This document shows positions 6,954 to 45,252 of a DNA stretch of 64,000 bases, piece after piece. The DNA comes from Candidatus Nanoarchaeia archaeon (GTDB lineage: Archaea > Nanobdellota > Nanobdellia > Woesearchaeales > GW2011-AR9). Below the pieces are notes generated by a model. That model had not been told where the DNA came from, did no database searches, and saw only the letters and a list, made by a program, of their open reading frames with translations. Location: the NCBI GenBank assembly GCA_035289845.1, contig DATDWB010000028.1, positions 4,662 to 68,661 on the forward strand, read 5' to 3'. Each line of letters starts with the position of its first letter. The stretch's first letter is position 1. Made by a program: the position numbers and the translations under genes.

Positions 6954-6996
6954 AGAGAAGTTTGCATAATTAAATTATTTATCCGCAAACTTCTCT
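6954..6996. repeat. Palindromic repeat element, copy A (12-bp perfect inverted repeat AGAGAAGTTTGC / GCAAACTTCTCT around a 19-nt loop)
   Basis: Identical 43-bp copies occur at 21109 (truncated) and 29513. Begins 1 nt after the cysS stop codon. Confidence 0.9.
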
Positions 6997-7026
6997 AAAC
7001 TAAGCTAAAAGTTTTTATAAATCCGG

Positions 7027-7260
7027 TTAAAAGTTATAATTAATGATTTTTTCTAGGTTATGTTTTGGAAAATTATTGGCGATGATATTAGGGACATATT
7101 TGTTAATATCAGACTCATAGCCTGCTTTATTCTCTAAAATGCTAGGAATTTTTGTCCCAGCACATCCTTTCCGGGAACAATCATAAACTAAAGAGGTTGA
7201 TCCTACAATTAATCCCAGCAATAAGATGCAGCCTTTAAGTCGAGTGGTATATTTGCTCAT
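7027..7260 (-). CDS. Small Cys-containing secreted/membrane-anchored hypothetical protein
   Basis: N-terminal hydrophobic segment CILLLGLIVGSTS. 77 aa with four Cys. Confidence 0.4.
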   Translation of the reverse strand: MSKYTTRLKGCILLLGLIVGSTSLVYDCSRKGCAGTKIPSILENKAGYESDINKYVPNIIANNFPKHNLEKIINYNF

Positions 7261-7326
7261 GGTAGTTAAAGTAGTTATTTATATTAATTATTTAAAAATG
7301 ATTGGCTTAAAACATAAGTATAACTA

Positions 7327-7590
7327 TTATTTACCTCCTGCTAGAGCTTGTTTAACAGCCTTAGGGTCATAACCTATGATTATGCTGCCACCGATGGTTA
7401 TAACTGGAACTCCGCTTTGGCCGGATAGGCGGATCATTTCATTACGAGCCTGGTCATTGGAAGTGACATCATATTCAGTATAATTAATTTTATTATCTTT
7501 AAGAAAATCTTTAGCTTTTTTACACCAGGGGCAAGACGGAGTGGTGTAAATTTTAACTTTAGGTTTAATCTTAGTTAGTGTTTTGGCCAA
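7327..7590 (-). CDS. Glutaredoxin/NrdH-like thioredoxin-fold protein
   Basis: CPWC active site (TTPSCPWCKKAKDFL), 87 aa. TTG start. Confidence 0.8.
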   Translation of the reverse strand: MAKTLTKIKPKVKIYTTPSCPWCKKAKDFLKDNKINYTEYDVTSNDQARNEMIRLSGQSGVPVITIGGSIIIGYDPKAVKQALAGGK

Positions 7591-7751
7591 ATCTAGGGTG
7601 GTTAGGAGTTATTACTTATATTATTTTCGGTTGGACAATCTAAGTAAAAAAATGGCGATTCGAATGCTTTTTAATAAGTTAATTTTAAATAGAATAAATG
7701 ATTATAAATAATAGTTAATAAATAATACTTAAACAAAAAGGTTAATTTAAA

Positions 7752-8582
7752 TTGAAAAATTCACGTAAAATAATCTCCTTAAAAGTAATTTTGGTGCTGT
7801 GTATACTTGGTTTTATAACTTCCTTATACTTGATATATAATCACTATTCCCTAGAATCGACAGCCTGTGATTTTGGAAATCTGGTTTCTTGTTCAATTGT
7901 TAACAGCAGTATATTCTCTGAACTGTTCAATGTTCCGGTAGCTTTATTTGGAGCATTGTGGTTTGTAGTGTTAGCAGTTATCACCTTCCAATCTTTTAAA
8001 AAAAAACATTATCTGGCGTATTCCTTGGTTTGGAATATAGTGGGAATACTATTCGTGTTCTATCTGGTGTGGGCGGAAACTTTCTTAGGAGCATTATGCC
8101 CTTACTGTACAGTTGTCCACATAATTATTACCCTCACTTTAATTCTGTCAATAATTCTATTTATGGCTGAGAAAGCGGCGCTGTCTTTCAAATTGTTAAG
8201 TTTAGGCAGAAGCTTTATTTTGGCAATTGTAGTGATTTATTTATTGGCCGTATTGTTGTTTAATATACCCTGGAGTGGAAAAAATAATTATGATCTCGAA
8301 GCTCAGTGTATAACTGAAAAAGGGGTTAACATGTACGGATCATTTCGCTGTGGTGTCTGCGCCAAAACCAGAGCTATGTTTGGCGATTCTTTCCAATATA
8401 TAAATGAAATAGAATGCCATCCCCAAGGAGAGAACTCACAAACTGAATTGTGTCTGCAGAAAGGCATAAAATTAACTCCAACCTGGATCCTTGAACCAAT
8501 GGGAGTGGAACAGAAAAGGCAGGAGGGTTTCAGGTCAGTAGATGAACTTAAAGTATTTGCTGGATGTGAAGTTGAGCCCTAA
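7752..8582 (+). CDS. Vitamin K epoxide reductase (VKOR)-family membrane protein fused to a C-terminal thioredoxin-like domain
   Basis: Five TM helices with a loop Cys pair (CDFGNLVSC) and a TM CxxC (CPYC). C-terminal CGVC thioredoxin-like domain. TTG start. Confidence 0.7.
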   Translation: MKNSRKIISLKVILVLCILGFITSLYLIYNHYSLESTACDFGNLVSCSIVNSSIFSELFNVPVALFGALWFVVLAVITFQSFKKKHYLAYSLVWNIVGILFVFYLVWAETFLGALCPYCTVVHIIITLTLILSIILFMAEKAALSFKLLSLGRSFILAIVVIYLLAVLLFNIPWSGKNNYDLEAQCITEKGVNMYGSFRCGVCAKTRAMFGDSFQYINEIECHPQGENSQTELCLQKGIKLTPTWILEPMGVEQKRQEGFRSVDELKVFAGCEVEP

Positions 8583-9293
8583 ATGTTGCCGGACGGATTA
8601 ACTATCCCCCTAATTATCGCAGCGGCTTTAGCTGACAGTATTAATCCCTGTGTGTTTGGTGTCCTCATCTTTCTATGTGCATTTATGCTGAAGACTTTTA
8701 AAAATCCCCTAAAGATGCTGTGGGGAGGATTGTTATACTCCTTGGTGGTTTACCTTACTTATTTATTAATTGGATTGGGGTTTATCCAATTTACAGTTTC
8801 ATTTGGTGTTTCAGTAATTGTTTATTGGATAGCGGCAGTTCTGGCCATACTGGCAGGGTTGATTGAAATTAAGGATTTTTTTTGGTATGGTAAGGGATTT
8901 AGCCTGCAAATAATTCCAGGAGCAGCTAAGAGGATAGGTTATTATACCACTAGAATAAAGAAAAGTTACAGTTCTCGAAGTTATAGGGGTTATTTAGGCG
9001 CCGGACTGTTAGTGGTGTTTGTAGTTTTAGTAGAATTACCTTGTACTGGCGCCCCTTACCTAGTGGTTTTAGCATTGATCGGACAGGGAAATTATGTTCA
9101 AGGTCTACCCCTGCTATTATTGTACAATCTGATATTTATCCTGCCCCTCCTAGTAATAATCGGATTAGTTTATGCTGGAAAATCAGCACAAGCCTTGGAA
9201 AAATGGCGTAAGGAAAATAGAAAATGGATGAGGCTGGGAGTAGGTTTGTTTTTAATTGCGTTGGGAATTTACATGATTTTTACTATTAGTTGA
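8583..9293 (+). CDS. ccdA: CcdA/DsbD-family thiol-disulfide transporter (cytochrome c biogenesis CcdA-like)
   Basis: Multipass membrane protein with the two conserved TM cysteines (SINPCVFGVL and LPCTGAPY). Start overlaps the VKOR stop (TAAATG). Confidence 0.75.
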   Translation: MLPDGLTIPLIIAAALADSINPCVFGVLIFLCAFMLKTFKNPLKMLWGGLLYSLVVYLTYLLIGLGFIQFTVSFGVSVIVYWIAAVLAILAGLIEIKDFFWYGKGFSLQIIPGAAKRIGYYTTRIKKSYSSRSYRGYLGAGLLVVFVVLVELPCTGAPYLVVLALIGQGNYVQGLPLLLLYNLIFILPLLVIIGLVYAGKSAQALEKWRKENRKWMRLGVGLFLIALGIYMIFTIS

Positions 9294-9338
9294 AAATATT
9301 TAAGTGGGGGGAAGTTAAAAAATAGAGGTAAAAACAAA

Positions 9339-9440
9339 ATGGTTAAGAAGAAAATAGTATCTAAAAAAACGAAAAAAACAAGGAAAAAAAATTCTAAAAA
9401 GAGTGTAAAAAGTAGTAAAAATGTGTGTGATTATTGTTAG
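9339..9440 (+). CDS. Small lysine-rich basic protein (33 aa, MVKKKIVSKKTKKTRKKNSKKSVKSSKNVCDYC)
   Basis: SD AATAGAGGT upstream. Short ORF absent from the track. Compositionally similar to the 3136-3279 protein. Confidence 0.4.
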   Translation: MVKKKIVSKKTKKTRKKNSKKSVKSSKNVCDYC

Positions 9441-9493
9441 AAAGGTTTATTAACTTTTTTTAATATTGTATTTTAATTAAAGAGGTCGAAATA

Positions 9494-10372
9494 GTGGGTA
9501 AACCAGTAATTAAACCAGTACCAAAAATAGACAATATCCTGAAATTAAAACTTCTAGCCAATCAAATTAGGCAGGACATCATTAATTCTCTGGCCGCGGC
9601 TGGTTCAGGACATAGTGCCGGTCCATTAGGGATGGCCGATGTTTTTACGGCATTATATTTTAATATCCTTAAGCATAATCCTAAGTATCATTTTTGGGAA
9701 GGACGTGATAGGATTGTACTGTCAAATGGGCACATCTGTCCAGTGCTCTATGCAGCGATGGCTAATGCGGGTTATTTCCCCAAAAAAGAATTGCAAACAC
9801 TGCGTCATTATGGTACGCGCCTGCAAGGACATCCCCACCGTTCCACATTGCCAGGTTTGGAAACAACATCTGGTCCGTTAGGGTCCGGTTTAAGTCAGGC
9901 TGCAGGAATGGCTTATGCCTTGCAGATGGATAAGAAAAAAAACCGCGTTTTTTGTTTGATGAGCGATGGAGAACAGGAATGCGGACAAACTTGGGAGGCA
10001 GCAATGTTTGCCGGCAAAAACAAATTACAAAATCTCACCGCGTTCATCGACAGAAACAACATTCAAATTGATGGCTATACCGAAGATATTATGCCGCTGG
10101 AACCGTTAGCGGATAAATATCGCGCTTTTAATTGGCACGTCATTGAAATAGATGCCAATAACATCCCAGCGGTTATCAACGCATGCAATGAAGCAGCAAC
10201 AATTCATGAAAAACCGACTTTAATCCTGGCCCATAATATTCCTGGCAAGGGGGTTTCCTTTATGGAAAATGATTATCTGTGGCATGGAAAGCCTCCGACT
10301 GCCGAAGAAGCGAAGGTTGCGTTGGCAGAATTAAAAGCCTGGCGGGAACGAATTATTAAGGATAAGGATTGA
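9494..10372 (+). CDS. tkt: Transketolase, N-terminal (thiamine diphosphate-binding) subunit
   Basis: GHSAGPLGMAD ... SNGH motifs. GTG start with an AGAGGT SD. Split-type transketolase typical of archaea. Confidence 0.9.
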   Translation: MGKPVIKPVPKIDNILKLKLLANQIRQDIINSLAAAGSGHSAGPLGMADVFTALYFNILKHNPKYHFWEGRDRIVLSNGHICPVLYAAMANAGYFPKKELQTLRHYGTRLQGHPHRSTLPGLETTSGPLGSGLSQAAGMAYALQMDKKKNRVFCLMSDGEQECGQTWEAAMFAGKNKLQNLTAFIDRNNIQIDGYTEDIMPLEPLADKYRAFNWHVIEIDANNIPAVINACNEAATIHEKPTLILAHNIPGKGVSFMENDYLWHGKPPTAEEAKVALAELKAWRERIIKDKD

Positions 10373-10404
10373 GGAGTGATTGAAGATTGAAAAGTGATTA
10401 AATA

Positions 10405-11418
10405 ATGAAATCAATAAACAAAAAGGCACATCTGGTAGGGAACTTATATTCCAAAGACATTAAGAAAGTTAAAACGAGGGACGGCTACGGAAAGGGTTTA
10501 GTTAAAGCCGGCGAGAAAAATAAAAATGTTGTTGTCCTCTGCGCGGACTTATCCGAATCGACTCGAAGTGAATGGTTTCAGAAAAAATTTCCCGAACGCT
10601 TTGTTGAAATCGGTGTTGCAGAACAAAATATGGCTTCCTTGGCTTCAGGTATGGCAGCTGCCGGCAAGATAGCTTTTATGTCCTCCTATGCTGCGTTTAG
10701 TCCAGGCAGAAATAATGAACAAATAAGGACCACAATAAGTTATAATTCATGGGGCAGCAAACCAGGAAGGGAAATTAACGTGAAGATCGCCGGTGCTCAT
10801 GCAGGCATTTCTGTTGGCCCCGATGGTGCTACTCATCAAGCGTTGGAAGATGTCGGCTTAATGCGTTTACAGCCAGGCATGGTAGTAATCGTGCCGTGTG
10901 ATGATGTTGAATGCGAAAAAGCAACAATTGCTGCCGCAGAAACGCCCGGTCCATTCTATCTGCGCTTTGGCAGAGCAGATTATCCTTCTATAACTACCGA
11001 AAAAACTCCTTTCAAAGTAGGAAGAATCGAAGAATTTCGTTCCGGAAAAGAGTGTACGATTGTGGCCAATGGTCCATTAGTCTATGAGGCGTTAATTGCG
11101 GCGAAAAAATTGGAAAAAGAAATTGACTGTCAAGTTTTAAATTGTCATACCGTAAAACCAATGGATGGAAAAACACTTCTTGCTGCGGTTAAAGTAACTG
11201 GCTGTGCCGTTACAGCAGAAGAGCATCAATGGCAAGGCGGCTTGGCAGGAGCAGTAGCAGAATTTCTTGGCGAGAATTATCCCGTTCCCATTAAACGAGT
11301 AGGCGTTAAAGATAGATTTGGTGAAAGCGGCAATCCGGATGAGTTATTCAAAGCATTTGGCTTGACTGCGGACGATATTGTAAAAGCGGTAAGAGCGGCC
11401 GTAAGAATGAAAAAATAG
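10405..11418 (+). CDS. tkt: Transketolase, C-terminal (pyrimidine-binding) subunit
   Basis: Pyr and C-terminal transketolase domains. 337 aa. Adjacent to the N-terminal subunit. Confidence 0.9.
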   Translation: MKSINKKAHLVGNLYSKDIKKVKTRDGYGKGLVKAGEKNKNVVVLCADLSESTRSEWFQKKFPERFVEIGVAEQNMASLASGMAAAGKIAFMSSYAAFSPGRNNEQIRTTISYNSWGSKPGREINVKIAGAHAGISVGPDGATHQALEDVGLMRLQPGMVVIVPCDDVECEKATIAAAETPGPFYLRFGRADYPSITTEKTPFKVGRIEEFRSGKECTIVANGPLVYEALIAAKKLEKEIDCQVLNCHTVKPMDGKTLLAAVKVTGCAVTAEEHQWQGGLAGAVAEFLGENYPVPIKRVGVKDRFGESGNPDELFKAFGLTADDIVKAVRAAVRMKK

Positions 11419-11494
11419 AAAAAGCATGGATACGCCCTGAAAAATTTCAACTTTTTTCTTATTTTTGAACTAAAATTTAATAGTTACTAATCCC

Positions 11495-12259
11495 TCAGCC
11501 AAATTCTCCATTCAGATATTCTCGGGTTAATTTATGTTTTGGATGGTTAAATATTTCTGGTGTTGGGGAAAATTCTATTATCTTTCCATCCAGTAAATAG
11601 CAGGTATAATCTGAGATTCGTTTTGCTTGCTGCATATTGTGAGTTACAATTACAACAGTCATTTCATCTTTTAATTTTTGTAGTAATGCTTCTATCTTTA
11701 CGGTAGCAATAGGGTCAAGGGCGGAGCAAGGCTCGTCAAATAATAGTATGTCGGGTTTAACCGCTAAAGCTCTAGCAATGCATAGTCTTTGTTGCTGCCC
11801 CCCAGACAACTTAAATGCAGGAAGATGTAATCTATCTTTGACTTCCTTCCACAGGTCAGCCTTCTCCAAGCTTTGTTGTACTATTTCCCGCAACTGATGC
11901 TTATCTTTTATATTCTGGATTCGCAAGCCGTAGGCAACATTATCAAAAATAGACATGGGGAAAGGATTCGGCTTCTGAAAAACCATTCCTATTTTTTTTC
12001 TGAGTTCAACTACGTCGGTGCTTTGATCATGGATTGGTATCTTGTCGTAATAAGCTCGACCTTCTACTTTACAATTACTGATAAGATCGTTCATCCTGTT
12101 AATGGATCTTAGCAAAGTCGATTTTCCGCAGCCGGAAGGTCCGATCAGCGCAGTAATTTTCCGGGTGGCTATTGCTAGGTTGATATCAAACAATACTTGT
12201 TTGCTTGCATACCAAAGATTGAAATGTTCAAAGTTTATTTTTGTATTTTCTGTACTAAT
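11495..12259 (-). CDS. pstB: Phosphate ABC transporter ATP-binding protein PstB; probable non-canonical ATT start at 12259 (the track calls TTG at 12193)
   Basis: Walker A GPSGCGKST and signature LSGGQQQR. The in-frame upstream extension ISTENTKINFEHFNLWYASKQV aligns with the PstB N-terminal strand. No ATG/GTG/TTG is in frame before a TAA. A GGAGTG SD lies 5 nt upstream of ATT. Confidence 0.8.
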   Translation of the reverse strand: MSTENTKINFEHFNLWYASKQVLFDINLAIATRKITALIGPSGCGKSTLLRSINRMNDLISNCKVEGRAYYDKIPIHDQSTDVVELRKKIGMVFQKPNPFPMSIFDNVAYGLRIQNIKDKHQLREIVQQSLEKADLWKEVKDRLHLPAFKLSGGQQQRLCIARALAVKPDILLFDEPCSALDPIATVKIEALLQKLKDEMTVVIVTHNMQQAKRISDYTCYLLDGKIIEFSPTPEIFNHPKHKLTREYLNGEFG

Positions 12260-12260
12260 T

Positions 12261-13127
12261 TTACCACTCCTTTTTCTTTCTTAATTTATATCTGATGATG
12301 AATACCCCTAGATTAAGGATAAAAGTCAGGCAGATTAATACTAGAGCAGTTCCAAGGGCATACTCTTGAGCATATTGGCTGGAATGCTGGGTAGCCAAAA
12401 TAAAAGTATGATATGGTAAGGCCATAAATTTGTCAAAAGGGGAAGTAGGCAGGTAACTCATGAAAAAAGTTGCACCTACTACAATGATCGGCGCAGTTTC
12501 TCCCATCGCTCGTGATATTCCTAATATTGACCCAGTAAGAATTCCACTCCAGGAATGGGGCAACACATTTCCTTGTATAGTCTGCCATTTTGAAGCTCCC
12601 AGAGCATAACTGCCTTCTCTTAATGAAAGTGGGACGGCTTTTAGCGCTTCTTCACTGGCGGTAATTATCCAGGGCAAAGTCATAACTCCTAAAGTTAATG
12701 AGGCTGCTGCCAGCGAAGTTCCTAACCGCAGAAACAATACAAAAAATGATAATCCAAATAATCCATAAATTATGGAAGGAATGCCGGCTAGATTTCTGAT
12801 GGCCAGTTTAATTGATCTGGTAAATAAATTATCTTTGGCATATTCATTAAGATAAATAGCTGCACCTATACCAATAGGGATAGAAGCCATGGCTACTCCT
12901 ATTCCCAGAAAGACCGATCCAAGTATTGCAGGAAAGATTCCTCCTTGTCGGATATCACTGTGCGACCACATTTTAGTCAGGTAATTTATATTAATCACTT
13001 CTGCCCCCCCCATAAAAACAAAAATAAATACTAAAATCAGCACTGCCACAGAAAAAAATGCAGCTACCCTGATAATCATGAACACAATCTTTTGTTTATT
13101 GTTTTCACTGATCATATTTTTTACCAT
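12261..13127 (-). CDS. pstA: Phosphate ABC transporter permease PstA
   Basis: Six TM helices with the EAA-like permease motif. Operon position. Confidence 0.88.
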   Translation of the reverse strand: MVKNMISENNKQKIVFMIIRVAAFFSVAVLILVFIFVFMGGAEVININYLTKMWSHSDIRQGGIFPAILGSVFLGIGVAMASIPIGIGAAIYLNEYAKDNLFTRSIKLAIRNLAGIPSIIYGLFGLSFFVLFLRLGTSLAAASLTLGVMTLPWIITASEEALKAVPLSLREGSYALGASKWQTIQGNVLPHSWSGILTGSILGISRAMGETAPIIVVGATFFMSYLPTSPFDKFMALPYHTFILATQHSSQYAQEYALGTALVLICLTFILNLGVFIIRYKLRKKKEW

Positions 13128-14017
13128 TGATATTTCCGCACTTGTTTTTGAATAATTAAATCTGAAATAAAGTTGATTACAAAGGTTAATGCAAACAATA
13201 CTAAACCCATGGCAAATAAAGTTTGATAGTGTAAGCTATCTTTCACCACTTCTTTAATTTCTATAGCAATATTAGCAGTAATTGGCCTGATCGGATCAAA
13301 AAAAGAAGTGGGCATGGCTCGGGAGTTGCCGGCTACCATCAAAACGACCATCGTTTCTCCGATAGCTCTCCCCAATCCTAACAACACTGCAGCAGAAAGT
13401 CCAGAAAGTCCCGCGGGAAGTAAAGTCATACGGATCATCTGCCATTTTGTTGCTCCTAAGGCTAAGCCGGCTTCTCTAAATTCTTTGGGCAGTGACCGCA
13501 AAACATCTTCAGAAATACTAACTATGGTCGGTAAAACCATAATCCCCACTATAATCGAGGAAGTAAGAGCATTAAGACCAGAACTAAGGTTGAAGAGATC
13601 AGCAATTGCCGGAGCAAGAAATAAAATTCCTAATAGTCCCAGTACTACAGAAGGAATTCCGGCAATCATTTCAATAATCGGTTTTACTATCTCTCGTACG
13701 TTGGGCCTGGCTATTTCTGACAAATAAATTGCGGCCGCTATTCCTAAAGGAATTGCTATTACTAAGGAACCAAGAGTTATCATTGCGGTTGAAACTAGTA
13801 ATCCTAGAATGCCCCATTGTGGCTCTTGATAAGCAGTTGGATTCCAATCTCTTCCAGTAAAAAAATCTCCTGCTGAAACTTGAGTAAAAGATTTTATTCC
13901 AGTAGTAAAAAGAAAAAGAAAAATCCCAATTAGGGTGAGTAAAGCAATTGCACCAGTTGCAGAAAAAATAAATTTGATTACCTTTTCTTTTAGGTTTTTA
14001 CAACTACCACTACCCAT
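13121..14017 (-). CDS. pstC: Phosphate ABC transporter permease PstC
   Basis: Permease homologous to PstA. Overlaps pstA by 7 nt. Confidence 0.88.
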   Translation of the reverse strand: MGSGSCKNLKEKVIKFIFSATGAIALLTLIGIFLFLFTTGIKSFTQVSAGDFFTGRDWNPTAYQEPQWGILGLLVSTAMITLGSLVIAIPLGIAAAIYLSEIARPNVREIVKPIIEMIAGIPSVVLGLLGILFLAPAIADLFNLSSGLNALTSSIIVGIMVLPTIVSISEDVLRSLPKEFREAGLALGATKWQMIRMTLLPAGLSGLSAAVLLGLGRAIGETMVVLMVAGNSRAMPTSFFDPIRPITANIAIEIKEVVKDSLHYQTLFAMGLVLFALTFVINFISDLIIQKQVRKYQW

Positions 14018-14020
14018 TTC

Positions 14021-14950: not shown

Positions 14951-15070
14951 GATAGCACCTCTTCTTAAAATCATTTTAATTGGATAAGGTTAGGATAATT
15001 TATATAAATGACCTATAAATACTATGTAGTTAGTGCAATAATTTATATAGTTAAGGTATAGGCTTATATT

Positions 15071-16024: not shown

Positions 16025-16178
16025 GCCTGTTTACTAATACCTCTTCTATTTCTATCCCTTAAGGCTTTTAAAATATATTATCTGCCTTTCCCTTTTCAGT
16101 GCGTCTTTCTTTGTTCTGAACGTACCAAGAACTTTTTGTCCATCTTTGCTGTACAACACCCATTTATATCCTTCTTTT

Positions 16179-18475: not shown

Positions 18476-18640
18476 TTTTGGACGTCCATCCGGTATATAA
18501 ATTGTGGTAATAATTAGGCTTTGAATATGAACTGTTATTTAATAGTTGTTTACGGCGGTATAAGGTTATTATTTTTGGTCTTATGGACTCCTACAGCGTA
18601 GTAACTAACCTTTAAAAAATACTTCTACTTTATAAAAAAG

Positions 18641-20961: not shown

Positions 20962-21108
20962 ATCCAACACCTCAATAGTATATTATTGTACTCTTTTATG
21001 CTTAAATGATGGTTGGTCTTAAAAAGATTTCGGAAATCTAAGCTTATTTAATCTCGTTCTAGGGATTAAACCCCTAGTTAGTTGCAATTGGCGGGCTCGC
21101 TAAACAAT

Positions 21109-21228
21109 AGAGAAGTTTGCATAATTAAATTATTTATCCGCAAACTTCTAAAGAGAATTTGAAATAAACGTAATTTTGGCATTAAACAAACGATATATTT
21201 GCCCAAATTACTATTTTTCAAACTTCTC
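21109..21228. repeat. Composite palindromic repeat unit 1: short element (21109-21149, right arm truncated) fused to a long 77-bp element (21152-21228, TIR AGAGAATTTGAAA/TTTCAAACTTCTC)
   Basis: Direct comparison with copies at 6954, 29513 and 45132. Confidence 0.85.
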
Positions 21229-21262
21229 AATAGTAAAATTTCTACGAAATTTGAAAAATTAT

Positions 21263-21387
21263 AGAGAACTTTGCAAAATTAGATGATTTATTATTAGCAA
21301 ATTTCTAAAGAGAAGTTTGAAATAGTCGTAATTTTGACCTTAAACAAACAATATATTAACCAAAATTACTTTTTTTCAAACTTCTCT
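21263..21387. repeat. Composite palindromic repeat unit 2: short element (21263-21306) plus a long 79-bp element (21309-21387). Exact reverse complement of 45132-45252.
   Basis: Revcomp of 45132-45210 equals 21309-21387 base for base. The adjacent short elements also correspond. Confidence 0.9.
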
Positions 21388-21407
21388 ATAATAAAAAGGC
21401 AGGACGT

Positions 21408-21935
21408 TTAAACAGAACCATATTCTGCAAGAGTCATAACTTTTGGCTTTAAATCTTCAAGTTTTGTTTTTAATCCTGCTACATGACCTAAACCAATAAC
21501 AGCAACTAATCTGCTGTTTTTATCATATAAACCTCTAATTTTTGTCCCCATCGCTTCGTCTCTTTGAGGATTATAAACCTGCTTTAATACTTGAACTACT
21601 TGTGGAGGTATAACTTCCTCCATAATTTCAAATATTTCAGGACCTCTAATTATTTTAATAAGTTCTTCTATTTCTTCCGCTTTTTGATATATTTGTTGAT
21701 CATCTCTTCTAAAATCTTTCAAATAATCATCAATTCCACCGTTTAATTTTTTAAGCAATGGCTTTACTAATTCCGAATCTTCAGCAATTTGCTTATACAT
21801 CCATTTTATTGTTTCAACGTAAGATTTAACAAATTCTTCTTTACCATCCGCAAAAATAGAAATATCAATGTATTCTAATTTTGAAGCAGGATTTCTGCGG
21901 GTATAATCTCTTGAAGATTTAAATTCGTAACCCAT
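21408..21935 (-). CDS. TraB/PrgY-family protein, C-terminal part (VAVIGLGHVAGL motif)
   Basis: Continues the upstream 86-aa ORF. The two ORFs share nt 21935 (TAATG overlap). Confidence 0.55.
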   Translation of the reverse strand: MGYEFKSSRDYTRRNPASKLEYIDISIFADGKEEFVKSYVETIKWMYKQIAEDSELVKPLLKKLNGGIDDYLKDFRRDDQQIYQKAEEIEELIKIIRGPEIFEIMEEVIPPQVVQVLKQVYNPQRDEAMGTKIRGLYDKNSRLVAVIGLGHVAGLKTKLEDLKPKVMTLAEYGSV

Positions 21936-22195
21936 TACATCATTAATGATTCTATTAGTCTTGCTCTTTGTCTTGGATTTAAATTCAAACCTGATTCATC
22001 AATCATTGCATTAATCTCTCTCTGTTCTTCTTCTGGTGATTTTCGCCATATATCAAAATCTTCTCTATCTTTATTAAATTCAAGAGCAATAATAGACGGA
22101 GAAAGTCTATCTAAAAGAGTATCAAGTCTTTCTCTGCCATCTAAATCACTATGTACTGTTCCTACCAAATATAAATCTACAGAGCCAATTAACAC
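21935..22195 (-). CDS. TraB/PrgY-family protein, N-terminal part (LVGTVHSD motif)
   Basis: The family domain is split across two overlapping ORFs. Either a genuine two-gene split or a frameshift. Confidence 0.5.
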   Translation of the reverse strand: MLIGSVDLYLVGTVHSDLDGRERLDTLLDRLSPSIIALEFNKDREDFDIWRKSPEEEQREINAMIDESGLNLNPRQRARLIESLMM

Positions 22196-26706: not shown

Positions 26707-27228
26707 ATGGTTAAAGAAGCGGTGGCAGTACACAAATGTGTGGATCGTTCTATTTATTTGCAGGCTAATAATGGAGATATTTTATTGTTTTATAGTACTA
26801 GACCAATGCTGGTAGATAATGATTGTACGACCACTTCATTTGCGGGAGAATATTTTGTTCCGGCCGATATGGCTACAGAACTTTATAACTCTATCAACGC
26901 AGGTCATGATCCTTCCAGAATCGTTAAAGAACTAGGGTTGGAAAGACGGACTGTTTCTTCAGTTTTAGAAGATATTGCTAGAAGAGATGGTGGAACATCT
27001 CCTGCTCCAAATGTTACAAGAGATGGTGGAACACCTCCTGCTCCAAACATTCCTGATACATACCATCGTGGTGCAGCTGGACTTCACGCAATTGTAGACG
27101 ACTTTGGTATTGGTACGCCAGTGCCGCTTAGATATTTTGATAATGGCCGCGATCGCAGATTGTCTGTTAAGCGGATAAGATTGAAACCTGGTCCAGGCGG
27201 TCTCGTGCCTTATGTGGATGATGATTAA
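26707..27228 (+). CDS. Hypothetical protein with a tandem RDGGT(S/P)PAPN repeat; first gene of the GC-atypical island
   Basis: About 45% GC. Internal direct repeat DGGTSPAPNVTRDGGTPPAPNI. No homolog recognised. Confidence 0.4.
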   Translation: MVKEAVAVHKCVDRSIYLQANNGDILLFYSTRPMLVDNDCTTTSFAGEYFVPADMATELYNSINAGHDPSRIVKELGLERRTVSSVLEDIARRDGGTSPAPNVTRDGGTPPAPNIPDTYHRGAAGLHAIVDDFGIGTPVPLRYFDNGRDRRLSVKRIRLKPGPGGLVPYVDDD

Positions 27229-29457: not shown

Positions 29458-29512
29458 TTTTTTTATTTTTTAAATTTGTTTTTAATTTTCAAAGTATTAA
29501 CAAAAGTATTAA

Positions 29513-29555
29513 AGAGAAGTTTGCATAATTAAATTATTTATCCGCAAACTTCTCT
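29513..29555. repeat. Palindromic repeat element, copy F (identical to 6954-6996)
   Basis: 43/43 identity with copy A. Sits at the right edge of the GC-atypical kinase/vWA island. Confidence 0.9.
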
Positions 29556-29639
29556 AAACAAAGGTGATAACTAAATATCGCTCCTCCTCACAACAACTTT
29601 AAAAAATTAAATCCTAAAAATAATTAAGGTGTATGTTTC

Positions 29640-34087: not shown

Positions 34088-34181
34088 TATTTTTTGGGGG
34101 ATATTTGATCTAAGCCTAGAAAGAGATTTCTATTCCCTTCAACAGAAAATTATATAAAACCAACAGCCTAAGGCTTGCATT

Positions 34182-34616: not shown

Positions 34617-34682
34617 GTTCACCACTAATTATTTTTCTATTTTTAGATAACCTTTTTATAGGCGTTCTTATTAAGTAGGTTC

Positions 34683-35018: not shown

Positions 35019-35084
35019 AAAAATTTGAAATTTGAAATTTAAAATCAAGTAAGTTAATAAATTAAATTTAATGAGGTGTTTATC

Positions 35085-35810: not shown

Positions 35811-35856
35811 TCCTTAAAAGTAGTCTCAAAAAATAAGCTCCTAAAATAAAATTCTA

Positions 35857-36534: not shown

Positions 36535-36704
36535 CGAATACGCCCAAGAAACTTATCGTAGGGAAATAGTTTCGGGATAACACATACGCCCAAAAAACCA
36601 CAAACCTTTTAAATAAGCAGTAAATTAATGGAGTTATAGAGCGTAAAAGGAGAGATATCCGCACGCTTTTACCCATATTAAAACACCGGTGCGGATACAC
36701 AAAA

Positions 36705-37394: not shown

Positions 37395-37406
37395 GGCTGA
37401 TTAAAA

Positions 37407-38180: not shown

Positions 38181-38195
38181 ATAGAGGAATTTAAA

Positions 38196-38984: not shown

Positions 38985-39067
38985 CTGAAACAAATTGAAG
39001 TCATTTTTATTTTTATCAATTTTAAACAAAAAGTCTAAAAACAGCAAAGTAAATACTAACCTTAACC

Positions 39068-39295
39068 ATGGTCAAAGAAACTAAACCCTTTAAATATACT
39101 AAGTATGAGAAAGCTAGGATGATTGGTTCAAGAGCCTTGCAGATTTCGATGGGAGCTCCATTCCTGGTAAAGCTGACAGACAAAGAGTTGGAAAATATAA
39201 GGTACGATCCGATTGAAATTTCTATTTTGGAATTTAATGGGGGAATACTTCCAATTACCGTCAGAAGACCAGGCATTAAATCTAGGGAAAATTGA
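39068..39295 (+). CDS. rpoK: DNA-directed RNA polymerase subunit K (Rpo6/omega-like)
   Basis: YEKARMIGSRALQISMGAP motif. 75 aa. Confidence 0.85.
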   Translation: MVKETKPFKYTKYEKARMIGSRALQISMGAPFLVKLTDKELENIRYDPIEISILEFNGGILPITVRRPGIKSREN

Positions 39296-39612
39296 AAGTT
39301 CAATTTCCTGGTTTAGGCAGACTAAAAATGAACAACCAGATTACTTCAGCTAAATTAGACCGTTATTTTTCTATTACCAAAGAGGCTTTAGCCCAAGCTG
39401 GACAAGCTCTGGATTCCCAACGCTTGGATAAGGCTAAAGACTTTTTGGATATGGCTTCCCGCTATTTTGCGGATGCCAAATATTTCTCGGAACAGAAACA
39501 AGATTGGGTTCTAGCCTTTGCAGCCTTAAATTATGCTCACGGCTGGCTGGATGCCGGGGCCAGGATCGGGCTGTTTAAAGTTAAGGATAATCGGCTGTTT
39601 ACGGTAGATTAA
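39292..39612 (+). CDS. Conserved archaeal hypothetical protein (helical; true start possibly ATG 39328)
   Basis: ORF coupled to rpoK. No catalytic motif recognised. Confidence 0.4.
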   Translation: MKVQFPGLGRLKMNNQITSAKLDRYFSITKEALAQAGQALDSQRLDKAKDFLDMASRYFADAKYFSEQKQDWVLAFAALNYAHGWLDAGARIGLFKVKDNRLFTVD

Positions 39613-39774
39613 TCCGGTAAGCACTAAGCAGGTAAAATTTAGTAAGTACTACTAAACAGTACTAAATTCAGAAAGATTTATAAATAAGCCTGAACTATAG
39701 CTTAAAAAAGAGTTCTGGTAGAAGGTAAAATTAAGATTTAAGGCTTAAGATTTAAGATTAAGGGGGAACAAATA

Positions 39775-40560
39775 ATGATTATTCAAAAGGATTTCCTAAA
39801 CAAACTAAAAGACTTTGGACTAAATTCATACGAGAGTAAATTATGGATAGCTTTGCTATCCCGAGGAGTTTCTACGGCCGGCGAGTTATCGGACATTTCT
39901 AACGTGCCTCGAAGCCGGGCTTATGATGTTCTAGACTCATTGGAAAAAAAAGGGTTTATTATTGTTAAAGTTGGCAAACCAATCAAATATTTAGCGGTAT
40001 CTCCCGCTGAAGTAATTGAACGAGTTAAGAAAAAAGTAGTTCAAGAAGCCGAACAGCAGGACAAAATATTATCCCAACTTAAAGGCAGTGATATCCTGGA
40101 AGAATTAAGTGTACTGCACAATCAAGGAATAAAATTAATTGATCCAACTGACAGAAGCGGGGCTTTCCGAGGACGGGATAAGGTTCATGAACATCTGTTG
40201 ACTTTAATTAAAGGAGCCAAGAAAAGCATAACTTTAATGGTGTCTAAAGATGGTCTAGACCGGAAATACGATCTGTTAATAAACCATCTGCGCAAGGCAG
40301 CTAAAAATGGAGTGAACATTAAAATTTCTATTCCAGCTGGTGCAAATAAGGACAAAGTCAGCGACTTAAGTAAATTTGTTCAAGTTAAACAGGATAAGGA
40401 TATATCTACCCGCTTCTGCATTGTTGACAACAAAGAATTGTTGTTGTTTTTGACAGACGACGAAAAAGTGCACAAGAGTTACGATTGCGCAGTGTGGATT
40501 GATGCTCCGTATTTTGTTGAATATTTCAGCGCGCTGTTTGAGAGTGCGTGGAAGGAGTAG
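39775..40560 (+). CDS. TrmB-family transcriptional regulator
   Basis: N-terminal winged HTH YESKLWIALLSRGVSTAGELSDISNVPRSRAYDVLDSLEKKGFI plus the TrmB C-terminal domain. Confidence 0.8.
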   Translation: MIIQKDFLNKLKDFGLNSYESKLWIALLSRGVSTAGELSDISNVPRSRAYDVLDSLEKKGFIIVKVGKPIKYLAVSPAEVIERVKKKVVQEAEQQDKILSQLKGSDILEELSVLHNQGIKLIDPTDRSGAFRGRDKVHEHLLTLIKGAKKSITLMVSKDGLDRKYDLLINHLRKAAKNGVNIKISIPAGANKDKVSDLSKFVQVKQDKDISTRFCIVDNKELLLFLTDDEKVHKSYDCAVWIDAPYFVEYFSALFESAWKE

Positions 40561-40563
40561 ACA

Positions 40564-42012
40564 ATGAGCGAGGAGGTGGTATCTTTTCTGGACGAAGTAG
40601 AGCGGTTGGCTGCAGCTGCGTATGGTGTTGTGTTGGATTTGCGGTTAGGTTATGGTCGTGACGTTAAATTAGCTCGCAATAATTTAGAAGACTACTTAAC
40701 TCAGGAACGTAACTTTTCTGAACCCGATTCTGCTCTTGTTGTTTATATTTTACAAGATTATTTTACAGCGGAAAATTTGGCGAAGAAGGCAGATCTTTCC
40801 ACAGATAATAAGGATCCAATTGCTGATAATTCTTCGGTATTTCCATTTCAAGCAGATGCTTGGCGGAAAAAAGTGTATACTGCTCGAAAAAGACTCATAG
40901 ATATGAAGGTAGAAACTACATATCGTGCAGCGATGCACAACGCAGATATTGCCGCCAGCCGTTCTGTTGTCGGAGAATTATATGTCATCGAATTTAGAAC
41001 AGAAGGTATTGAAGACAGGCTTCATAATCCCTCCACTTCATCACCAGATGATTTTTTTTACAAGGAAGCTCATCTTAAAGAAAATCTTTATAAGGCGGCA
41101 GAACTCGAGCATCATGATCAACCCCTATTATTGTACAAAACTACTTTTCGTCACTTAGCTAAATCCCGCGGCTGGCATAAATTATCAGATGCCGACTTAG
41201 TTAGGGAATTAGATCACGCGCACGTTCCGCTGGAAGTTGCGAAAGGATGTTTGATGCGTAGGATTGAACGGCCGGCGGTTGGAGCAGGACTGGATATTAC
41301 TATTTCTGGAGATCAACAACATTCTATTCGTGTTACTTCGAACTTGGTGGACGTCGAAGGTAATCTACAATCAGCCTACGCTCAAATTCAGCCGGGCACG
41401 ATGTGTACTGCAGCGGAAATAACTAAAGAACGGCTGACAAACGAATCCCTGCGCCAGCGCGCCTATTATACTGCGAATGGAATAATTTATTGTATGCAGG
41501 ATGGCAAACCGGTGCTGTATATAACCCCCGAAAAAGGTAATTTAGTTTTACGGCATCTTGCTGATGCTCAGAATAGTTCTTATGATCAATTAGTTAATAA
41601 TCATAATTATCGTCCTTCGCTGGACGAAGTTAGTGAGGTAATCTCCCCCGGGCAAGGTGCGGAAAAATTTGATTTGTCGGACTTGGTATTAGCTGGCGGT
41701 AATGATGAATGGCAATATTTTACCATCGGTACGTCGCCTCGGGATTATAGTAAGTTGATTGGAATCGGGAAACGGTTAGCGGAACGAGTTTTTGGCAGCG
41801 GTCCAGATTTTACGGCGGCGATGCAGATGTTCGCTGATGCTGGGATTACAGCAACCAAAATAGGGGTCTTGAAACCGAGTTATGTTGCCAGCAATGCAGG
41901 CACTCCCCTCGGGCGGGCTTCGTGGCTGGATAGTTTCAGCTACAATTCCAGTTTCATTGCCGATGATCGTACTGTAGACATTCTTAACGCCCTGCGTGGG
42001 GTAGCGGGGTAG
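40564..42012 (+). CDS. DGR target (variable) protein, 482 aa, about 50% GC, with the variable repeat at its extreme C-terminus
   Basis: The last 33 codons align to the template repeat upstream of the RT. TR AAY codons are replaced by D/S/Y/I/T codons in this gene. No signal peptide, so likely intracellular. Confidence 0.75.
   Translation: MSEEVVSFLDEVERLAAAAYGVVLDLRLGYGRDVKLARNNLEDYLTQERNFSEPDSALVVYILQDYFTAENLAKKADLSTDNKDPIADNSSVFPFQADAWRKKVYTARKRLIDMKVETTYRAAMHNADIAASRSVVGELYVIEFRTEGIEDRLHNPSTSSPDDFFYKEAHLKENLYKAAELEHHDQPLLLYKTTFRHLAKSRGWHKLSDADLVRELDHAHVPLEVAKGCLMRRIERPAVGAGLDITISGDQQHSIRVTSNLVDVEGNLQSAYAQIQPGTMCTAAEITKERLTNESLRQRAYYTANGIIYCMQDGKPVLYITPEKGNLVLRHLADAQNSSYDQLVNNHNYRPSLDEVSEVISPGQGAEKFDLSDLVLAGGNDEWQYFTIGTSPRDYSKLIGIGKRLAERVFGSGPDFTAAMQMFADAGITATKIGVLKPSYVASNAGTPLGRASWLDSFSYNSSFIADDRTVDILNALRGVAG
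41911..42005 (+). repeat. DGR variable repeat (VR)
   Basis: About 95 nt align to 42342-42436 with roughly 70% identity. 14 of about 28 TR adenines are substituted versus 13 of about 68 non-A positions. Confidence 0.75.
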
Positions 42013-42058
42013 GCGAGCGTACGCGAGCAATCAGATACTCCTGGGCGCCGAAGGCGCC
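42001..42058 (+). promoter_or_regulatory. GC-rich IMH-like segment plus downstream hairpin (GGCGCC-GAA-GGCGCC, 42044-42058) at the VR 3' boundary
   Basis: GGGGTAGCGGGGTAGGCGAGCG followed by a 6-bp GC stem-loop, analogous to the DGR homing cis-elements. Confidence 0.5.
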
Positions 42059-42341
42059 ACTTTTCAGTAGTCAGTTTTTATCGTTGTATATTCAGCTATT
42101 TCAACCTCGAGGTTATAACACCACAATATTCTTAAAATAAATTTATTTTATTGTTAATCTCGGCATATTCCTCTCACAGAGGAAGCTGCTGGGCTACATG
42201 CCATTGGGCCATGGTCGAGGCGACTTGATTATGAAACCCTTATCTCGAACCAGTTCTGGGATGATAAAACAATCGTGACACGATGCTTAAGAGCATTATG
42301 ATTGAAACGGTGAAGAAAATAGAGGCTTGATGGCTACAGCA

Positions 42342-42440
42342 CGGGCGGGCGTCGTGGCTTAACAATTTCAATAACATTTCCTACTTCAATGCCAATGATC
42401 GCAATGTTAACAATCATAACCGCGTGCGTGGAATAATCCA
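42342..42440 (+). repeat. DGR template repeat (TR), extremely rich in AAC/AAT codons
   Basis: In the VR reading frame the TR reads RASWLNNFNNISYFNANDRNVNNHN. It ends about 20 nt before the RT start codon. Confidence 0.75.
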
Positions 42441-42462
42441 GCAGTTGTCCGAGGTTCTTTCT

Positions 42463-43615
42463 ATGAAACGACCTTCTAGAAATTTGTGGAATGAACTTTG
42501 CTCCTACCCCAACCTCGAACTTGCCTATAAGAAAGCGCGGAAAGGAAAAACAACACGCGACTACGTCCTTGAATTTGAGCACAATCTTCAAGACAATCTT
42601 TTGCAATTGCGCAGTGATTTGCTGTTTCATTCCTATCGGCCCAAACCACTGCAAACGTTCATTCTTCGTGATCCTAAAACGAGGAAAATTAGCAGGTCGG
42701 CTTTCCGAGATCGGATAGTACATCATGCGCTCTGTAACATTATTGAACAGTTCTTCGAACGAAGTTTTATCTTTGATTCGTACGCCAACCGGAAAGGCAA
42801 AGGCACACTGAAGGCAATAGAGCGTTTTGCACACTTCTCTCGGAAAGTAACTCATAATAACACCCAGCGGGCTTTTGTCTTGAAAGCGGATATAAAACAG
42901 TATTTTGAAAATGTGAATCATGCTCTTCTCCTGGGCATCATCCAGAAAAAAATAAGGGATCAGAAAATACTGTGGCTCATCAAAAAAATTCTTTCCAATT
43001 ATTCCGCCGCAGAAAAAAATGTTGGCATGCCTTTAGGAAATCTCACCTCCCAGTTCACGAGAAAAGACAACGATCTTTTCTGTGCCCTGATAAAGTCGTT
43101 GCTTTATCTTGGGTTTTGCTAATGTCTATCTGCACGAATTAGATCATTATGTCAAACAGCAGTTGAAAGCGAAATACTACGCGCGCTACGTGGACGATTT
43201 TGTGATTCTCGACCGTTCACGGTCAAAACTCGAGAAATACAAGACACACATCGTTTCTTTTCTCGCCACACGACTTGCCTTGCAGCTTCACCCCCAAAAG
43301 TCACGTATCATCAATCTTGAGAGGGGTACAGATTTTCTCGGGATGCGACATTTTCCTCATCATAAACTTATCAAAAAGAAAAATGTACGAAAATTTCGTA
43401 CTAAATTAAGTCTGCTTTCTCTTCGCTTTAAGCAGGGAGAATTATTATATGATAACCTCTACGATTTCATGGAAGGGTGGGTTGCGTATGCCAAGAATGC
43501 CGATACGTACCGATTACGGCAGGGCATTTTAACTGTGTTTGAACAGAATTATCGGCAGGAAATGGCGACTAAGGAGATTAATCGAGGTAAGAATTTTTTA
43601 ATGCCTGCCCTTTAA
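42463..43615 (+). CDS. DGR-type reverse transcriptase, reading frame interrupted by an insertion of about 58 nt between the PLGNLTSQF and FANVYLHELD motifs
   Basis: RT motifs are present: RPKPLQTFILRDPKTRKISR, VLKADIKQYFENVNH, GMPLGNLTSQF / FANVYL, YARYVDDFVIL. Two overlapping ORFs (to 43122; from 43109) reveal the frame break. Confidence 0.75.
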
Positions 43616-43656
43616 GAGAGAAATATTTAAATGGTATTAAGCTTATTGAAGGTATA

Positions 43657-44034
43657 ATGGCGAAAGAAGAAATAACCCTCTGGATTGAGCAGTCTTTTGA
43701 AGACTTCAAAGCGGCACAATATAATCTAAAAGGTAAACAGTTTCATGTGACAGCCCTTTTAGTCCAGCAGGCAGTGGAAAAGGGATTGAAAGCTCTCTTC
43801 ATTAAAAAATTTGGTGAAGTCCCAAAAGTACACGATTTAGTATTTCTGGCTAAGCGATTAGACCTTCCTGAGAAACTTCTTCACTATTGCAAGAAAATTT
43901 CTCCTTTCTATATTGAAACACGGTATCCTGATGCGAAAGGTTTTAGGAAAACAACTGATTTTACGCTTAACGAGTGTAAAGAAGCTCTTAATAATTGTGA
44001 GGAGATTCTGAGATGGATAAAGCTGAACATTTAG
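43657..44034 (+). CDS. HEPN domain protein (toxin-like partner of the MNT gene)
   Basis: HEPN helical pattern QQAVEKGLKALFIK ... ETRYPD. Overlaps the downstream MNT gene by 22 nt. Confidence 0.7.
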   Translation: MAKEEITLWIEQSFEDFKAAQYNLKGKQFHVTALLVQQAVEKGLKALFIKKFGEVPKVHDLVFLAKRLDLPEKLLHYCKKISPFYIETRYPDAKGFRKTTDFTLNECKEALNNCEEILRWIKLNI

Positions 44035-44330
44035 CCAAACAGCTGAAGGCTTTCAAGAAGGAGGTTTCAAAGAAAATACCTCTCAAAGCCCTGGTCTTTT
44101 TTGGCAGCCGAGCAAAAGGGAAGGGGAAAAAATATAGTGACATCGATTTGTTGGTCGTATCGTCAAAATTCAAGAACAAAAAATTTCACCAGCGCGCAAC
44201 GGCGTTATATGACTATTGGACTTTAGATTATCCGGTTGATTTTCTTTGCTATACACCGGAAGAATTCAATAAAAATAAAAAGATGATTGGCATTGTCCGC
44301 CGCGCAGTTGAAGAAGGAATAAAAATATGA
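44013..44330 (+). CDS. Minimal nucleotidyltransferase (MNT) domain protein
   Basis: GSRAKGKGKKYSDIDLLV (GS...DxD) nucleotidyltransferase signature. 105 aa. Confidence 0.75.
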   Translation: MDKAEHLAKQLKAFKKEVSKKIPLKALVFFGSRAKGKGKKYSDIDLLVVSSKFKNKKFHQRATALYDYWTLDYPVDFLCYTPEEFNKNKKMIGIVRRAVEEGIKI

Positions 44331-44334
44331 CTAC

Positions 44335-44694
44335 TTATCTCCATTGACATTCCTCAGCAACTAATTTTAAGAATTCTTTTAATCGTTCTATTTTTGGTTT
44401 CAATTTAATGGTTTCTTCCATCCCCAGCATTGTGTCTTGCTGAAGTTTCATAATGTGCTGGAAATAGTTAATATCAGAAGTGTAATGAAGAGCAACTCTG
44501 GCCAATTCTGCATACGGAAAAGGTTTTATGAGCGGTAAATGGGGTTCCCATTCGTGAAAATTATCTTTCAAGATTTGTCCCAATATTTCAGTTTGAGGGA
44601 AATAACCACCATTTTTCCCAGTTTGGAAATGGTGTACTTCCCAATAAGCATTGCGGGCGATACGCACTAAGTCCGGTGAAGTAATATCGTTCAT
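44335..44694 (-). CDS. Hypothetical protein, possibly DUF86/HepT-like HEPN (ARVALHY R-x3-H)
   Basis: 119 aa. Weak R..H motif. Convergent with the MNT gene. Confidence 0.3.
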   Translation of the reverse strand: MNDITSPDLVRIARNAYWEVHHFQTGKNGGYFPQTEILGQILKDNFHEWEPHLPLIKPFPYAELARVALHYTSDINYFQHIMKLQQDTMLGMEETIKLKPKIERLKEFLKLVAEECQWR

Positions 44695-44787
44695 TTTTTA
44701 ATCGCTGATGGAGGGGTATTTAATGATTATGAAATTTTAGCCAATGATAGGCATACCTTTTTAAATTTCTTCTTCTTTTCAAGAATT

Positions 44788-45126
44788 ATGAAACAGGTTC
44801 TAATTGTCCGTCAGGATCTAAATCTACCTAAAGGGAAGCTGGCGGCTCAGGCGGCACATGCTTCAGTGGAAGCAGTTCTTAAAACAGATTTGGCTATAGT
44901 CAAGAAGTGGCAGCGGGAAGGTATGGCTAAAATAGTTCTTAAAGTAAAAGATGAGAAAGAATTGGTGTATTATTTTCAGAAAGCCAAGGAAGCAGGATTG
45001 CCAGCAGCCTTGATTACAGATGCCGGCAGGACGGTTATCGCTCCTGGAACTAAGACTTGTGTCGGAATCGGGCCGGAAGAGGAAGAAGAGATCGATGCAA
45101 TAACCGGAAATTTGAAATTATTGTAA
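44788..45126 (+). CDS. pth2: Peptidyl-tRNA hydrolase, archaeal Pth2 type
   Basis: VLIVRQDLNLPKGKLAAQAAHAS...CVGIGP is the Pth2 signature. 112 aa. Confidence 0.9.
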   Translation: MKQVLIVRQDLNLPKGKLAAQAAHASVEAVLKTDLAIVKKWQREGMAKIVLKVKDEKELVYYFQKAKEAGLPAALITDAGRTVIAPGTKTCVGIGPEEEEEIDAITGNLKLL

Positions 45127-45131
45127 ATTAT

Positions 45132-45252
45132 AGAGAAGTTTGAAAAAAAGTAATTTTGGTTAATATATTGTTTGTTTAAGGTCAAAATTACGACTATTTC
45201 AAACTTCTCTTTAGAACTTTGCTAATAAATCATCTAATTTTGCAAAGTTCTC
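45132..45252. repeat. Composite palindromic repeat: long 79-bp element (45132-45210) plus a short element (45211-45252). Reverse complement of 21263-21387.
   Basis: Base-for-base revcomp match to the unit-2 array copy. Confidence 0.9.

Follow-up and report, generated by a model that had tools for sequence, protein, structure and literature searches.

Palindromic one- and two-hairpin repeats with 4-bp target duplications in a Woesearchaeota-type archaeon: a probably IS5-derived MITE family

Palindromic elements of the window

The stretch of DNA analyzed here in its full length of 64,000 nt (the window; positions 4,662 to 68,661 of contig DATDWB010000028.1, assembly GCA_035289845.1, Candidatus Nanoarchaeia archaeon) carries housekeeping genes and a family of short palindromic repeats, which very probably are non-autonomous DNA transposons, denoted as MITEs (miniature inverted-repeat transposable elements). 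The genes of the window encode PTH2, CysRS, a class I aminoacyl-tRNA synthetase (Val/Ile/Leu type), RFC, exosome and proteasome subunits, L44e, S27e, eIF2-alpha, Nop10, and Cdc6; just upstream on the contig lie genes for a tRNA-splicing endonuclease, FEN1, and PAN. The GC content of the window is about 37% and flat, and neither tRNA genes nor Rfam matches were found in it. Proteins identical to those of the window occur on contigs of Rifle groundwater metagenomes. The DNA is archaeal, and a Woesearchaeota-type host is deduced from the metagenome-assembled genomes in which the repeat family also occurs.

A profile built from related copies assigns exactly five elements of the window to a single repeat family, with no additional diverged ones. 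Two are solo 41-bp hairpins and three are two-hairpin units of ~120 bp; all are bordered by a target-site duplication (TSD):

6951..6954, no strand: left TSD copy TAAA; the CysRS gene (5505-6953) ends in its first three bases, which form the stop codon TAA
6955..6995, + strand: solo 41-bp hairpin with arms GAGAAGTTTGC/GCAAACTTCTC and a 19-nt loop; right TSD copy TAAA at 6996-6999
21110..21228, + strand: two-hairpin unit of subfamily A; TSD AATA at 21106-21109 and 21229-21232; profile score 46.4 bits
21264..21386, + strand: two-hairpin unit of subfamily B; TSD TATA at 21260-21263 and 21387-21390
29514..29554, + strand: solo 41-bp hairpin, identical to 6955-6995; TSD TAAA at 29510-29513 and 29555-29558
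45133..45252, - strand: two-hairpin unit of subfamily B, reversed; TSD TATA at 45129-45132 and 45253-45256

The 11-nt arm AGAGAAGTTTG occurs 14 times in the window with at most one mismatch (1.9 occurrences expected; maximum of 6 in 100 shuffles), and the paired-arm pattern is found at four places versus none expected. The repeat copies described in an earlier note on this DNA are all present, and several of their details have to be revised. That note listed a 43-bp element at three places. The copies at 6954-6996 and 29513-29555 are identical, whereas the one at 21109-21149 has a defective 3' arm (...CAAACTTCT followed by AAA) and is not an independent short copy, being instead the first hairpin of a two-hairpin unit. 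The true ends lie one base inside the boundaries given earlier, the outer A and T belonging to the 4-bp target duplication. Finally, the copy at 45.1 kb had been called an exact reverse complement of 21263-21387; it is a near one, complementarity being 99% over 102 nt and 100% over another 34 nt, and a 3-nt indel separates the two segments.

The elements end in an inverted repeat, GAGAAGTTTG(M)...(K)CAAACTTCTC, of at least 10 bp. Comparison of related loci in other metagenome-assembled genomes (MAGs) defines the commonest unit, of ~80-130 bp, as two abutting palindromic modules. Hairpin 1 (~40 nt) consists of GAGAAGTTTG, a loop beginning with MATAAYY, and CAAACTTCTC; the junction behind it measures 0-3 nt, or as much as 6 nt in one subfamily, and leads to hairpin 2 (40-90 nt), whose arms read GAGAMYTTTG.../...CAAAGTTCTC and whose long forms add an inner stem such as GTAATTTTG/CAAAATTAC. 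In two-hairpin units, on average 10.4 of 13 positions are shared between the outer ends, and the arm spacer ranges from 16 to 74 nt. Element size varies from 41 to 123 bp in the window and from 38 to about 270 bp in the MAGs, and no open reading frame (ORF) fits into an element. In the unit at 21110-21228, hairpin 1 (21110-21149) has the same loop as the solos, both of which carry the subfamily-A loop, and a junction AAA leads to hairpin 2 (21153-21228) with the inner stem GTAATTT.GGCA/TGCC.AAATTAC. The subfamily-B unit next to it comprises hairpin 1 at 21264-21306, with the left end GAGAACTTTGCAAAA, the same junction AAA, and hairpin 2 at 21310-21386; the segment 21152-21228 is a diverged copy (86%) of 21309-21387. 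On the opposite strand, hairpin 2 occupies 45133-45209 and hairpin 1 occupies 45213-45252.

Folded as single-stranded DNA, the units form two hairpins with -19 to -25.6 kcal/mol (z -4.6 to -7.8), among them those at 21110-21228 (-22.3 kcal/mol, z -5.8) and 45133-45252 (-23.5 kcal/mol, z -7.75); the solo at 6955-6995 reaches -10.1 kcal/mol (z -6.75). The solos possess an intact 3' arm, GCAAACTTCTC, and hairpin 1 of the composite unit a defective one, GCAAACTTCTaaa. As a complete arm in the solo versus a defective one in the composite is the product expected from recombination between the directly repeated 3' arms of the two hairpins, the solos look like deletion derivatives of the two-hairpin unit.

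The intergenic location of the elements claimed earlier is borne out. The profile gave 86 hits. Of these, 58 fall between two neighboring ORFs (25 tandem, 17 convergent, 16 divergent), 14 share more than 30 nt with a mechanically called ORF, and for the remainder no ORF was called on one side. With respect to co-directional genes, 11 elements show the same and 10 the opposite orientation. These mixed contexts and the lack of an orientation bias therefore argue that the elements are neither simple terminators, as had been considered before, nor oriented RNA genes. Insertions come as close as a few bases to stop and start codons: the TSD at 6951-6954 provides the TAA stop codon of the CysRS gene, the unit at 45133-45252 lies 6 nt past the stop codon of the PTH2 gene and 43 nt ahead of the next start codon, and one copy beyond the window ends 11 nt before a start codon. 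The suggestion that elements mark both edges of acquired islands found no support: the DNA between the copies codes for housekeeping functions, e.g. tRNA synthetases, RFC, and subunits of the exosome and the proteasome, and base composition stays flat.

A few further features were observed in the surrounding DNA. Adjoining the tandem elements, a homologue of the TraB/PrgY/GumN family is split into ORFs of 86 and 175 aa (21935-22195 and 21408-21935, respectively, - strand), whereas each of its relatives is one protein of about 260 aa. Two overlapping ORFs (42424-43122 and 43109-43615, + strand) make up a reverse-transcriptase gene (Pfam RVT_1); they cover positions 8-125 and 131-204 of the profile, pointing to a frameshift or a pseudogene. 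It is followed by a HEPN/nucleotidyltransferase pair (43657-44034 and 44013-44330) and preceded by a 482-aa gene of unknown function (40564-42012), about 80 nt past which one JGI contig stops. An ORF without family match (26707-27228) contains a 36-nt tandem duplication, 92% identical, at 26976-27047.

Target duplications and distribution among archaea

In order, the TSDs of the window read TAAA, AATA, TATA, TAAA, and TATA. Two additional copies located beyond the window on the same contig are flanked by ATTA and TAAA, giving perfect 4-bp repeats at 7 of 7 copies in this genome and a density of 7 elements per about 75 kb of contig. The latter two are subfamily-A two-hairpin units about 5.5-6.1 kb past the window end (locus L112, 15527-15645, - strand, and 16030-16148, + strand). 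They are inverted relative to each other around a 384-bp segment, and the second one is the copy that ends 11 nt upstream of a start codon, that of a CCA-adding-enzyme-like gene. The earlier note had proposed looking for target duplications, for instances elsewhere, and for a cognate transposase; the first two were found.

The distribution was scanned in one genome per species for exact arms 16-76 nt apart. This yielded 79 loci, 70 of them in 30 archaeal MAGs labeled Woesearchaeota, Nanoarchaeota, Nanoarchaeia, or Pacearchaeota; the richest MAGs hold 15 and 10 loci, respectively. Three of the MAGs are labeled 'Methanosarcinales' and have the same two-hairpin unit. Assemblies break at the repeats, as independent assemblies do at the 21.1-21.4 kb cluster of the window. 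Loops are near-identical inside a MAG and different between MAGs, which is the pattern expected of amplification in each genome. The family is patchily distributed: it was absent from about 150 kb of DNA from relatives chosen via the CysRS or the TraB-like gene.

The remaining nine scan hits, in bacteria and a true Methanosarcina, show neither TSD nor family loops and occur at about chance level; these arm matches, all devoid of a 4-bp TSD, are probably unrelated or due to chance. They include two in Pseudanabaena (L054 1754-1797 and L081 876-919), in which the same 11-nt arms make up, at an orthologous site, a 44-nt palindrome that is perfect or nearly so; the others are L012, L022, L024, L034, L061, L076, and L079. 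Viral carriers were considered as well. No hits to the exact hairpin or a variant were obtained among IMG/VR viral contigs, and eight matches to a looser 20-base pattern, lacking TSD and family loops, were discarded as chance.

The 'uncultured Methanosarcinales archaeon' MAGs (CAYSCV01, CAYHXI01, CAYUHB01; L011, L016, L017, L021, L023, L028, L031, L036, L038, L039, and other loci) possess loops near-identical to those of MAGs labeled Woesearchaeota or Nanoarchaeia, and their taxonomic labels may be wrong. Elements of other MAGs contain nested insertions of other short palindromic repeats, e.g. AGAAACGGACA...TGTCCGTTTCT and GTCACTAGCGTTC... (L066 320-560, L015 4483-4690, L045 4650-4790, L041 5740-5850, L036 6810-7208), and such genomes hold several small hairpin repeat families.

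In the MAG loci, perfect 4-bp flanking repeats border 32 of 48 automatically delimited elements, compared with 6.2 +/- 2.1 expected from random pairing (maximum of 16 over 20,000 trials), and in none of the 48 do they reach 5 bp. Most of the delimited elements lacking a perfect repeat represent boundary errors or tandem/nested copies; six further copies inspected by eye all have perfect 4-bp repeats. Delimitation relied on simple clustering of arms, as an extension by arm self-complementarity delimited the elements worse and was not used. The TSD consensus is T-W-W-A, and its sequence varies even within one MAG. TSDs deviating from the T...A rule (ATTA, AATA, CATA, TGTG, TATT, TTTT), including that of the unit at 21110-21228, which begins with a base other than T, are identical at the two ends of the element, which places the outer bases in the target and outside the palindrome. 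For the same reason a first-pass model, in which AGAG...CTCT ends were combined with a 2-bp duplication, was dropped; in the flank count of that pass, 30 of 34 cases had T at -3, and 30 of 34 had A at +3.

Transposition and alternative explanations

The elements are small and non-coding, end in terminal inverted repeats, are flanked by duplications of fixed length and variable sequence, and exist in multiple dispersed copies placed between genes. This combination argues strongly for MITEs in a DPANN (Woesearchaeota-type) archaeon, and the earlier description of the repeats as MITE-like and recently mobile agrees with it. Recombination sites or protein-binding operators, also put forward before, leave the target duplication unexplained. 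In the proposed mechanism, a transposase supplied in trans would bind the terminal repeats and would insert the element, by a cut-and-paste or copy process, at AT-rich 4-bp targets (T-W-W-A) through a 4-bp staggered cut, yielding the 4-bp duplication round every copy here. Before insertion, the CysRS site would have read ...GAAGTGAGCTAAACTAAGC..., with a single TAAA.

The family is probably derived from IS5. Members of the IS5 and IS1031 subgroups in ISfinder have GA/G or GAG ends and 3-4-bp duplications. The present element ends show the start (GAG/GGN) and the ...TTGCA core of IS5-type ends, and their duplication, 4 bp of TWWA, corresponds to the short T...A/R tetranucleotide of such elements; IS5 itself makes 4-bp YTAR duplications (PMC5009759). 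The left end GAGAACTTTGCAAAA of subfamily B and the right end TTTTGCAAAGTTCTC found in many other MAGs each match at 14 of 15 positions the terminal repeats of ISNme1, a member of the IS5 family (GAGACCTTTGCAAAA/TTTTGCAAAGGTCTC; PMC4596501, Table 2), and the repeats of ISPg1 and ISPg4 in the same table are similar to the element ends, too. Because of the end sequence and the duplication length, an IS5-family DDE transposase is, with moderate confidence, the most likely trans-acting enzyme.

Several results weigh against this picture. The evidence for the IS5 assignment is confined to the duplication length and to a resemblance of the ends, over about 15 bp, to repeats in a published table. Pfam and NCBIfam scans of the unannotated window proteins detected no transposase, and the gene tables of the surrounding contigs list none among the genes called on contigs of the same genome. 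When about 600 kb of MAG DNA surrounding the elements was compared all against all, no multi-copy segment exceeded 250 bp, and tblastn/phmmer searches of the MAG loci with an approximate sequence of the E. coli IS5 transposase found no IS5-like ORF. Neither an autonomous element sharing the ends nor a DDE_Tnp_1-type transposase was detected in the sampled DNA, which covered the window, neighboring contig DNA, and the ~600 kb of MAG loci. Likewise, no pre-insertion (empty) site was recovered, the available relatives, with 64-67% protein identity or less, being too diverged or non-syntenic: CysRS relatives in JGI metagenomes have at most 64% identity and different downstream genes, those of the TraB-like gene show no synteny, and a BLAST search of joined flanks against all loci gave as its sole junction-spanning match another palindromic repeat on one side. 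Lastly, across MAGs the two-hairpin unit retains complementarity both in its inner arms and in the inner stem of hairpin 2, with compensatory changes at 3 of 19 pairs in a 10-sequence alignment, which a plain model of two end-binding sites does not require. This complementarity could reflect long symmetric end-binding sites or a need for hairpin/cruciform DNA.

Clustering of the ORFs next to elements returned only Bro-N, TrmB, nucleotidyltransferase, and unknown families. A Bro-N-domain family of about 270 aa, without a transposase domain, lies 0-200 nt from an element at five loci in four MAGs, with two paralogues in one MAG (L017 886-1695, L023 1518-1943, L026 7286-7906, L070 4844-5823, L082 799-1410). 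At locus L078, a gene between the two inverted solos resembles by eye a ZPR1-type zinc-finger protein.

Since the inner arms and stem are kept complementary by compensatory changes across 30 species-level MAGs and no multi-copy transposase was seen near the copies, a variant of the scheme has some, though rather low, probability: the two-hairpin unit may be moved by a single-copy, vertically inherited (domesticated) Woesearchaeales transposase that needs a cruciform/hairpin substrate, or may, given how small these genomes are, have been exapted as a small RNA or a promoter/terminator module. If true, a domesticated enzyme of this kind would represent a host-element partnership like that of REP and RAYT, but with DDE-style 4-bp duplications.

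Transposition of a single strand, as in REP/REPIN-RAYT or IS200/IS605-PATE systems, in which a Y1 (HUH) transposase recognizes folded hairpins, is considered quite improbable. It would account for elements that consist almost wholly of stable hairpins, that are extragenic and often paired or nested, and whose arms are complementary in each hairpin yet vary between subfamilies, with few compensatory changes. IS200/IS605 and REP elements, however, make no target duplication and insert beside a fixed tetra- or pentanucleotide, whereas the present elements have a 4-bp duplication on either side whose sequence varies even among copies of one MAG. Moreover, the ends match IS5-family DDE elements, and neither a Y1_Tnp nor a TnpB gene appears in the annotation of the window or its contigs. 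As a family assignment, the REP/RAYT and IS200/IS605 type is excluded by the variable target duplication.

A marginally lower probability is given to regulatory hairpins that were selected locally, i.e. terminators, mRNA-stabilizing stem-loops, or operators kept by function rather than transposed. Strong folds, the conservation of the arm sequence over 30 MAGs, and copies located a few bases past stop codons, e.g. those of the CysRS and PTH2 genes, would fit such a role, but the 4-bp flanking duplications would remain unexplained. Copies also occur in divergent intergenic regions and 11 nt ahead of a start codon, their orientation relative to genes is random, a spacer varying as widely as theirs is ill-suited to a dimeric operator, and the relatives sampled via the CysRS and TraB-like genes entirely lack the element. 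A secondary, exapted role may exist at some sites.

Least probable among these is a multi-copy family of structured non-coding RNA genes, i.e. two-hairpin small RNAs. The conserved two-hairpin architecture and the three covarying pairs point in this direction; against it, the target duplications mark the copies as products of insertion, an orientation bias relative to genes is lacking, a conserved promoter or terminator context was not seen, and no element matches Rfam at the gathering score. Sub-threshold hits at 21310-21386 are restricted to precursor hairpins of animal miRNAs (mir-994, mir-548, mir-3047), all far under their thresholds (the best, mir-994, with 29 bits versus 93), and mirror the element's generic long-hairpin shape. 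Integron attC sites, archaeal origin-recognition boxes, C/D-box and H/ACA RNAs, and dif sites were rejected, as they do not fit the copy number, the variable spacer, and the TSD.

Related families and implications

Interpreted as MITEs, the elements are closest to ATR of Neisseria meningitidis, whose parent is ISNme1, and to BrickBuilt/MITEPgRS of Porphyromonas gingivalis, both described as IS5-derived (PMC4596501). With these they share ends that begin with GAG, have the form GAGNNNTTTGCA(AAA), and agree with ISNme1 at 14 of 15 positions, and they are likewise short, non-coding, intergenic, multi-copy, and predicted to form stem-loops. In contrast, the present family resides in a DPANN host, is much smaller (41-130 bp), and is built from two abutting hairpins. 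ISNme1 and ISPg1/4/9 co-occur with their MITEs (PMC4596501), whereas the genomes of the present family yielded no parent IS in the DNA sampled. The duplicated 4 bp, an AT-rich tetranucleotide bounded by T and A, are reminiscent of IS5, with TWWA as the consensus instead of YTAR (PMC5009759).

Among archaea, the family is closest to the SM elements of Sulfolobus, likewise small non-autonomous elements ending in inverted repeats, from which it differs in that no partner IS was found for it, whereas the partner IS elements of SM1-SM4 occur in one genome with them, and in its occurrence with the same 10-bp ends in 30 species-level MAGs. SM1-SM4 of Sulfolobus solfataricus are reportedly MITEs of about 80-190 bp with inverted-repeat ends; Redder et al. 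(2001) reportedly deduced their mobility from duplications at the flanks and from ends that they have in common with IS families, IS5 and IS630 types among them. REP/REPIN-RAYT elements and IS200/IS605 PATEs resemble the present family as extragenic, often paired, hairpin-forming palindromes with many copies per genome; their lack of a TSD, their Y1 transposase, and their sequence-specific insertion are each contradicted or unsupported here. Hairpin-forming MITEs of bacteria include the Correia elements of Neisseria, RUP, ERIC, and Nezha. They are, like the present family, nearly palindromic, intergenic, and foldable in RNA, at a size of 100-150 bp; Correia elements and RUP differ in duplicating TA rather than 4 bp, in their end sequences, and in their bacterial hosts. 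Correia elements are not known to have a cognate transposase.

As an automated census ranks a Woesearchaea genome with the archaea densest in MITEs (PMC11602168), MITEs as such are no novelty in this lineage. When the literature was searched for a MITE described from DPANN archaea or Woesearchaeota, this bulk census was all that turned up (PMC11602168), and the understanding of how MITEs work is left unchanged by the present family. The genomes of its hosts invite comparison on another point: DPANN archaea have genomes of about 1 Mb that are usually called streamlined, and despite this picture the contig carries about one element per 10 kb. A family defined by its ends, target, and architecture explains the assembly breaks in element-bearing MAGs and provides a marker for strain-level insertion polymorphism. 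Given how near the insertions lie to stop and start codons, it may also affect expression signals in these compact genomes. The GAGAAGTTTG ends, together with the TWWA duplication, offer a handle for locating the cognate transposase.

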